Shown here in pieces: positions 42,720 to 43,143 of a stretch of 64,000 nucleotides of DNA. The position numbers were made by a program, and so were the translations under genes. Source of the DNA: Escherichia coli. Lineage in GTDB: Bacteria > Pseudomonadota > Gammaproteobacteria > Enterobacterales > Enterobacteriaceae. Under the pieces are notes generated by a model, which saw only the letters and a list, made by a program, of their open reading frames with translations, did not search any database and was not told where the DNA came from. Numbering within the stretch: the first letter of the stretch is position 1; every line of letters begins with the position of its first letter. The DNA lies in assembly GCF_046105845.1 (NCBI RefSeq), contig NZ_CP151004.1; one strand, written 5' to 3'.

Positions 42720-42962
42720 ATGGCAGAGATTATTCCCATGACTGAAGAACAGAAATTCCAGTTAGAGATTTACAAACTGGTCATGAACCAGAACGCAGCC
42801 GCAGAAGAAGCATTTCAGTTCATTGGCACTGACGAACTGAAGCTTGAGCTATTCAAAATTCACTTCCAGTCAGGCGGCGCTAATTCAGATATCACGACCC
42901 GCACTATCGAAGCGGTGCGTAAATCGAAGGAAGCGTTAGACCTGTTCACTACCGGAGCATGA
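42720..42962 (+). CDS. hypothetical protein (80 aa)
   Basis: ORF upstream of the terminase region; stop overlaps the next start. Confidence 0.5.
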   Translation: MAEIIPMTEEQKFQLEIYKLVMNQNAAAEEAFQFIGTDELKLELFKIHFQSGGANSDITTRTIEAVRKSKEALDLFTTGA

Positions 42963-42963
42963 T

Positions 42964-43143
42964 GTGAGCCGCGTAATCAATTTGGGTAAGGAGAAGAAAT
43001 TCCCAATTACTCAAGAGCTATACGAGAGGCTGGAAAGCGTCATCCATGATTACGATGGTGAAATCAGTTTATGCGAGGCGATTGGTACACTCGAATTGCT
43101 GAAGCAGTCACTGATTGAAGGCGCGAAAGAGTCCTTAACCTGA
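42964..43143 (+). CDS. hypothetical protein (59 aa, GTG start)
   Basis: ORF VSRVINLGKEKKFPITQELYERLESV... overlapping the previous stop; below the ORF-track cut-off; followed by hairpin GGCAGC-n9-GCTGCC plus T-run. Confidence 0.4.
   Translation: MSRVINLGKEKKFPITQELYERLESVIHDYDGEISLCEAIGTLELLKQSLIEGAKESLT

Follow-up and report, generated by a model that had tools for sequence, protein, structure and literature searches.

orf80 and orf59c of a P22-like Escherichia coli prophage: two probably separate accessory genes between lysis and terminase

Two small adjacent genes of an Escherichia coli prophage, here called orf80 and orf59c after their P22 counterparts, are probably separate, independently exchangeable accessory genes that occupy the lysis-to-terminase slot in the late operon of a prophage of P22-like (Lederbergvirus) type. 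The stretch that contains them, 64,000 nucleotides from one strand of contig NZ_CP151004.1 (assembly GCF_046105845.1), is referred to below as the window, and their coordinates are given with those of neighbouring features in Table 1. Both genes are protein-coding, and their products are small, acidic and predicted to be soluble and all-helical. The DUF2560 gene, orf80, is a near-constant member of the slot and orf59c is an optional 169-bp cassette. Both are already known and annotated, and their mosaic setting is an ordinary one. An initial annotation had drawn attention to two adjacent small ORFs, of 80 aa and (with a GTG start) 59 aa, and to a hairpin after them, all of which was confirmed, with a measured gap of 1 nt between the ORFs. 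The analysis firmly identifies the two ORFs, and removes the over-reading of their tight spacing as a two-component system. It is also of modest use to annotators of lambdoid prophages, who can draw on the constancy of DUF2560, the ribosome-binding site in the 3' end of its gene, the orf59c cassette and an Orf59c family of more than 200 clusters.

Table 1. Features of the orf80-orf59c region (window coordinates)
Feature	Position	Strand	Basis or remark
GGAG, Shine-Dalgarno-like	42710-42713	+	six nt before orf80 ATG (sequence read)
orf80 homologue (80 aa)	42720-42962	+	ATG start; TGA 42960-42962 (ORF list)
GGAG inside the last codons of orf80 (ACC GGA GCA TGA)	42954-42957	+	six nt before orf59c GTG
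orf59c homologue (59 aa)	42964-43143	+	GTG start; TGA 43141-43143 (ORF list)
Linker CCTGAAATAACGATTAAGTGAGATGAAT + ATGGCAGCAC	43139-43176	+	initiation region and first codons of P22-type gene 3 (small terminase)
Intrinsic-terminator-like hairpin + TTTTATCGTT	43169-43199	+	terminator scan; 7-bp stem, 7-nt loop
DUF6953 ORF	43207-43446	-	Pfam
YodC/DUF2158 ORF	43491-43703	-	Pfam
Small terminase gene, Terminase_2-type	43730-44257	+	Pfam

Prophage setting

The gene order in this part of the window runs from Q through holin-like, lysozyme-like and Rz-like ORFs, a T5orf172/MUG113 gene and the orf80-orf59c pair to the small terminase, the large terminase and the portal. The Q-type antiterminator homologue at 39233-39856 was confirmed; the holin-, lysozyme- and Rz-like ORFs were read from their translations, by similarity to the lysis genes of related loci, and the large terminase and portal likewise from translations and related loci. 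A megablast search of phage genomes matched 194 records, and every match among those listed is a P22-like phage. The surroundings read as the late operon of a P22-like prophage, and both genes would be transcribed together with the late genes from a late promoter antiterminated by Q/gp23. A scan for a sigma-70-like promoter that could give a separate orf80-orf59c transcript returned 0 sites in 41500-44400, and a search for known RNA elements in 41400-44400 gave no Rfam match at E <= 1.

In related loci the accessory slot is filled by Rha, KilA-N, GIY-YIG, Tad2-like and Acb2/Tad1-like genes. The Tad2-like and Acb2/Tad1-hairpin genes, which are anti-defence sponges by their Pfam matches, were seen in loci L011 (2414-2692), L012 (2371-2652) and L185 (2605-2877), and their presence between the lysis genes and DUF2560 marks the region as a hot spot for accessory and counter-defence genes. 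The window itself carries, between the Rz-like ORF and the pair, a 161-aa protein (41881-42366) with a T5orf172/MUG113 (GIY-YIG-like) domain and a weak PADLOC match to the candidate system PDC-S57 (E = 4e-4); in other prophages its place is taken by Rha, KilA-N or an S1 peptidase.

Two further elements were observed upstream of orf80. About 70 nt 5' of the gene, at 42625-42663, there is a conserved stem-loop, AAAGCCATTC-cctaca-GAGTGGCTTT, with a 10-bp stem followed by a near-invariant GA(T/C)AATGGCTTAT. It was found in about 150 of the fetched loci, where 14 stem variants fold alike and compensatory changes are seen at four of the ten pairs. The stem lacks a following T-run, Rfam gave no match, and P22, with its pid moron abutting orf80, is without the element. 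Its role could be in termination or processing, or as a boundary element. In addition, a mini-ORF of 23 codons (MSAEGFNNPSKFRDEWDSSVKSK) lies at 42543-42614 behind a good AAGGAG, in a block that aligns, as a whole, with the orf25 stretch of P22. A closely similar mini-ORF (MATQGFDNPSKFRDEWDKQAEGK) is found right after orf80 in 16 IMG/VR loci, and the likeness at two sites suggests a mobile linker or gene remnant rather than a gene.

Identity of orf80

The orf80 gene of the window is, by annotation, the same gene as P22 orf80, HK620 hkbM and Sf6 gp67. Its product belongs to Pfam family DUF2560 (PF10834; E = 1.1e-43, 147.7 bits, the gathering cut-off being 25), with residues 5-76 covering profile positions 1-72 of 72, and also to phrog_571. 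The match to DUF2560 is full-length, and this family is itself without an assigned function. Members of DUF2560 are stand-alone proteins of about 80 aa encoded between the lysis and packaging genes of enterobacterial phages and prophages, and homologues are confined to Enterobacterales. The initial annotation had held that neither protein has recognisable motifs, which stands for Orf59c in so far as it has no Pfam family and does not stand for Orf80. The protein is acidic (pI 4.7) and not hydrophobic overall (GRAVY about -0.2), and its AlphaFold2 (AF2) model shows four helices (9-20, 25-35, 39-51 and 58-77; pLDDT 88, pTM 0.75), for which neither sequence nor fold searches gave a relative in the PDB. 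The "ORF80" of a paper on the Stx2 phage Sp5 is a namesake only, being an unrelated protein of 2793 aa. Upstream of the gene, the sequence GGAGCCAACAATGGCA around its GGAG is kept even 5' of divergent DUF2560 alleles (L004, L007, L009, L011 and L012).

According to the literature orf80 is dispensable in P22. Constructs of this phage in which orf25-pid-orf80 was replaced or deleted are viable (bioRxiv 10.1101/2023.08.15.553423; PMC11016777), and in P22 UC-0937, which is functional, orf80 is disrupted and only a fragment of it remains (bioRxiv 10.1101/2023.08.15.553423).

Coding status of orf59c

The length of an ORF is no proof of a gene here, as the same 5.5 kb has many ORFs of 50-84 aa in frames that are non-coding, and the GTG ORF is judged by comparative data for that reason. 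By annotation it is the same gene as P22 orf59c, HK620 hkbN and Sf6 gp68. Its product matches phrog_3546, a family annotated as of unknown function, over its full length (positions 1-59 of 59, E = 1.4e-42), and the same family was recovered again by an independent profile search; no Pfam or NCBIfam model was matched. The start codon is GTG in 96 of 109 loci and ATG at the same codon in the other 13, for example in Hafnia (L007), Citrobacter (L011) and Pantoea (L009). When the gene is compared with its most divergent alleles, the frame of orf59c has a dN/dS of 0.12-0.25, against 0.6-5 in the other two frames, and variable sites fall at codon positions 1/2/3 in the numbers 26/14/41. A profile search of 1.84 billion representatives (E <= 1e-3) gave 205 related clusters at 50% identity, mostly of 50-65 aa, aligned end to end and conserved down to about 35% identity. 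Within this wider family some members are found in other genomic contexts and some have N-terminal extensions, and phrog_3546 is the only family matched by the distant relatives. The protein is acidic (pI 4.8; GRAVY about -0.2, again not hydrophobic overall), and is predicted to have an extended N-terminus followed by a helix-loop-helix (residues 14-28 and 36-58, from the fused AF2 model described below).

These data indicate that the GTG ORF is a genuine protein-coding gene under purifying selection. Its conservation in related phages, on which the initial annotation had made its reality depend, is plain, and some relatives use ATG at the same codon. A chance ORF beside orf80 as the sole gene would fit the abundance of 50-84 aa ORFs in nearby non-coding frames, the weak GTG start and the lack of a Pfam family. 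Such an origin is scarcely credible, and is refuted by the start-codon survey, by selection specific to the orf59c frame and by a family kept to about 35% identity over 205 clusters; the confident AF2 prediction of the helix-loop-helix and the annotation of the gene in P22, HK620 and Sf6 also speak against it. A database protein of 107 aa (P0162) has the first 33 residues of Orf59c joined to a sequence that, by eye, is like a segment of the portal protein of the window, and is probably the product of a deletion in a decaying prophage that fused orf59c to the portal gene.

The junction between the two genes

The two genes meet in TGATGTGA (42960-42967), which consists of the TGA of orf80, a single T at 42963 and the GTG of orf59c at 42964, and the gap is likewise 1 nt in 93 of 109 orf59c loci. 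The distance from stop to start and the ribosome-binding site inside orf80 have the geometry of translationally coupled pairs. Nevertheless, an RNA structure occluding the junction is absent, the segment 42905-43010 folding like its shuffles (z = 0.14), and structure-dependent translational coupling is rejected on this ground. Translation of orf59c may be initiated from its own GGAG and GTG, possibly aided by ribosomes terminating on orf80.

The same arrangement is found whichever gene comes next. The start that follows orf80 is always 1-4 nt past the stop and is served by the GGAG within the conserved …EALDLFTTGA end, so that TGAtGTG is a generic module boundary and not the signature of a dedicated pair. 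The junction is best regarded as a property of the 3' end of orf80 rather than of the pair, that is, as ordinary operon packing of phages, in which the GGAG would serve as a ready-made ribosome-binding site for whichever gene comes next.

Distribution and histories of the two genes

The two genes do not occur together wherever either is found. Among 5426 complete E. coli genomes orf80 DNA is present in 898 and orf59c DNA in 158, and in IMG/VR at least 576 contigs carry a relative of Orf80 and 147 a relative of Orf59c. In a survey of what follows orf80 in 80 IMG/VR loci with a near-identical Orf80, the next gene was a 147-aa small terminase in 29, a mini-ORF of <=23 aa in 16 and orf59c in 15; in seven loci a 5-codon remnant led to the initiation region of gene 3, with orf59c cleanly absent, and the remainder had a 129-aa HExxH protein (four), a 162-aa protein (three) or a 134-aa protein (two), lacked the orf80 end pattern (three) or reached the end of the contig (one). 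Behind an identical orf80 at least seven alternative arrangements are found, all with the 1-4 nt junction. More distant DUF2560 genes (Serratia, Shimwellia, L015 and Pantoea) are followed by genes for 46, 128, 168 or 95 aa. The presence or absence of orf59c takes the form of a clean 169-bp indel in two different downstream contexts, with E. coli PK6 among the examples: the form with the gene reads GCATGATG-TGAGCC…-CCTGAAATAAC and the form without it GCATGATGCTCAACCTGAAATAAC.

The histories of the two genes are also discordant. Compared with loci L007 and L011, orf80 is 22-85% identical by block and the orf59c core 86-93%, whereas compared with L004 orf80 is about 100% identical and orf59c only 53-93%; the same orf59c core is found with orf80 alleles that are just 45% identical. 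Such mosaic identity profiles and shuffled combinations of alleles run counter to a shared history or co-variation. A common origin of the two families is rejected, with an hhalign probability of 0.4%. Fused in one AF2 model through a 30-aa linker, Orf80 and Orf59c are both predicted with pLDDT >90, and the pTM of 0.44 (0.75 for Orf80 alone) is a weak negative, as the model is a linker-joined monomer built with paired and unpaired rows and judged by pLDDT and pTM.

On the other side, all 109 enterobacterial orf59c loci have DUF2560 just upstream, at 1-4 nt in 99 and with one 95-aa ORF between the two genes in the other ten. As DUF2560 is constant in the slot, any inserted gene adjoins it, and the adjacency is weak evidence. 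For four distant orf59c-like genes (L180, L181, L182 and L184) the genes upstream are unrelated ones and DUF2560 is absent. Separately, a divergent prophage (L185, GCA_033898505.1) has at 3001-3416 an orf59c-like gene (61 aa, ATG) before DUF2560 (77 aa), in the opposite order to that of the window, with an ATGA overlap and a Tad2-like gene just upstream. An adjacency that survives a change of order would be expected from a functional link.

The inference in the initial annotation from tight spacing to a two-component function is not sustained by these data. About 80% of the carriers of orf80 lack orf59c, the 1-4 nt junction and embedded GGAG are common to all followers of orf80, the genes recombine independently and distant orf59c relatives have no DUF2560 neighbour, and the linker-fused AlphaFold model (pTM 0.44) shows no confident docking.

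Sequence downstream of the pair

The sequence past orf59c is CCTGAAATAACGATTAAGTGAGATGAATATGGCAGCAC, which in P22 (L001), L025 and L048 runs on as gp3 (ATGGCAGCACCAAAGGGCAACCG). In the window it diverges from gene 3 after ATGGCAGCAC, into TCAACATGCTGCCTTTT, and the vestigial gene-3 ATG at 43167 opens an ORF of only 12 codons, ending at 43205. From this point of divergence it follows that the left arm of the hairpin is the vestigial start, which appears to be the recombination scar of a swap to a small terminase of Terminase_2 type. The stem-loop proper (43169-43189) is GGCAGCA-ctcaaca-TGCTGCC, at -15.6 kcal/mol (z = -2.3 against shuffles), and among ten loci compared it is common only to L018, L019 and L084. 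Among 5426 E. coli genomes only NCTC9104 has the whole arrangement of 42700-43760, at 96.9% identity, and no copy was found in the phage collection. The hairpin accordingly marks this mosaic joint with the minus-strand insert, rather than being something conserved with the pair. Late transcription has to pass the hairpin at 43169 in order to reach the terminase and head genes beyond it, and the hairpin would presumably be read through by Q-mediated antitermination, given the Q homologue.

The pair, first described as lying upstream of the packaging genes, does not directly precede them in the window, as about 560 bp with two minus-strand ORFs intervene. The insert of DUF6953 and YodC genes is moron-like and positioned like pid of P22; it occurs in E. 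coli prophages and not in the phage collection, and in E. coli PK6 an ISEc52 lies between the two genes.

Alternative explanations and possible functions

Searches for function by homology (Pfam, PHROGs, NCBIfam, PADLOC and PDB sequence search) led to DUF or unknown families or to nothing, and in the literature searched no function is assigned to either protein. Each protein alone may bind a protein of the host or of a competitor, acting as a dispensable host-modulating or counter-defence factor. Orf80 and Orf59c can be proposed, with low confidence, as independent, late-expressed host- or competitor-binding factors that belong neither to the virion nor to the packaging machinery, and both are usable as candidates in screens for anti-defence or host-takeover activity.

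A facultative two-protein system, in which Orf59c is a partner or modifier that works only with Orf80 and Orf80 also works alone (a heteromeric inhibitor or adaptor, for example), is rather unlikely. The adjacent or near-adjacent DUF2560 in all 109 enterobacterial orf59c loci, the reversed pair of L185 with its overlapping stop and start, and a geometry that fits coupled translation would all be in keeping with it, but adjacency is expected anyway where any slot insert ends beside DUF2560, four distant orf59c relatives are without DUF2560, the shuffled alleles give no sign of co-variation, the pTM of the fused model (a linker-joined monomer) is 0.44 and P22 UC-0937 is functional despite its disrupted orf80 (bioRxiv 10.1101/2023.08.15.553423). 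The more specific form, a facultative Orf59c-DUF2560 partnership that acts late in P22-like phages as a heteromer inhibiting a protein of the host or of its defences, is quite unlikely; if true, recruitment of such a partner would explain why orf59c always stands beside DUF2560, in either order. A role for DUF2560, with or without Orf59c, as a helper of terminase in packaging or head assembly would account for its position, since at all loci examined the small terminase comes next or is only a few small genes further on, and in 29 of the 80 IMG/VR loci the two abut. This role is distinctly unlikely. DUF2560 keeps company with at least four unrelated families of small terminase (GP3_package, Sf6_terminase, Terminase_2 and a weak Terminase_5-like type) and with different types of large terminase and portal, which argues against a specific packaging partner, while P22 without orf80 forms plaques (bioRxiv 10.1101/2023.08.15.553423; PMC11016777) and the fold search gave no similarity to known packaging proteins.

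Type II toxin-antitoxin (TA) operons resemble the pair in having two small, tightly spaced or overlapping genes, of which the second is never alone among close relatives, and a translationally coupled module of antitoxin (Orf80) and toxin (Orf59c) would suit the sizes, the spacing and the asymmetry by which orf59c is always with orf80 and orf80 often alone. Unlike such operons, the pair is without TA homology (no toxin, antitoxin or defence family was matched in Pfam, NCBIfam or PADLOC, and no TA relative in the PDB), its genes are freely separable, and it lies in a lytic late operon in which no autoregulated promoter was detected (0 promoter-like sites in 41500-44400). Orf59c-like proteins occur elsewhere without DUF2560, the same orf59c core is combined with orf80 alleles just 45% identical, and a P22 derivative with disrupted orf80 is viable (bioRxiv 10.1101/2023.08.15.553423). 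A TA module is highly improbable and was rejected on the grounds of homology, separability, viability and promoter content. Two separate and independently exchangeable accessory genes remain the preferred explanation.

Comparison with known phages

The mention in the initial annotation of a similar pair in P22-like genomes proved right, the counterparts being orf80/orf59c in P22, hkbM/hkbN in HK620 and gp67/gp68 in Sf6. In P22 (NC_002371) orf80 (41014-41256) and orf59c (41258-41437) are arranged in the same order and likewise meet in TGATGTG, the block 42400-43180 of the window is 94.7% identical in DNA, and the proteins are 98.75% (Orf80) and, over the aligned part, 100% (Orf59c) identical to those of the window. 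HK620 and Sf6 have the homologous pair in the same place, at 96-97% DNA identity, annotated as a DUF2560 family protein and a hypothetical protein; in Sf6 the pair is the end of the circular record, and the gp68 gene has 192 nt as against 180 nt in the window. The differences lie on both flanks. P22 has the pid moron just 5' of orf80 and the window is without pid, and whereas the small terminase of P22, P6 and HK620 starts 24 nt past the orf59c stop, the window has in place of gene 3 the vestigial start and hairpin, the minus-strand two-gene insert and the Terminase_2-type small terminase.

Boundary sequences are said to have been described for HK620 and Sf6, in work by Clark et al. from 2001 and by Casjens et al. 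from 2004. In the Sf6 record the boundary sequence is annotated as a misc_feature within Rz and not at the orf80-orf59c junction. The likeness of the present locus to lambdoid module boundaries is in the short conserved gene-end sequences that flank interchangeable genes, for which the 3' end of orf80 and the CCTGAAATAAC…ATGGCAGCAC linker are the candidates in the window. As in the lambdoid boundary sequences, these conserved ends may act as linkers for homologous recombination, by which a gene such as orf59c would be exchanged beside a near-constant orf80.
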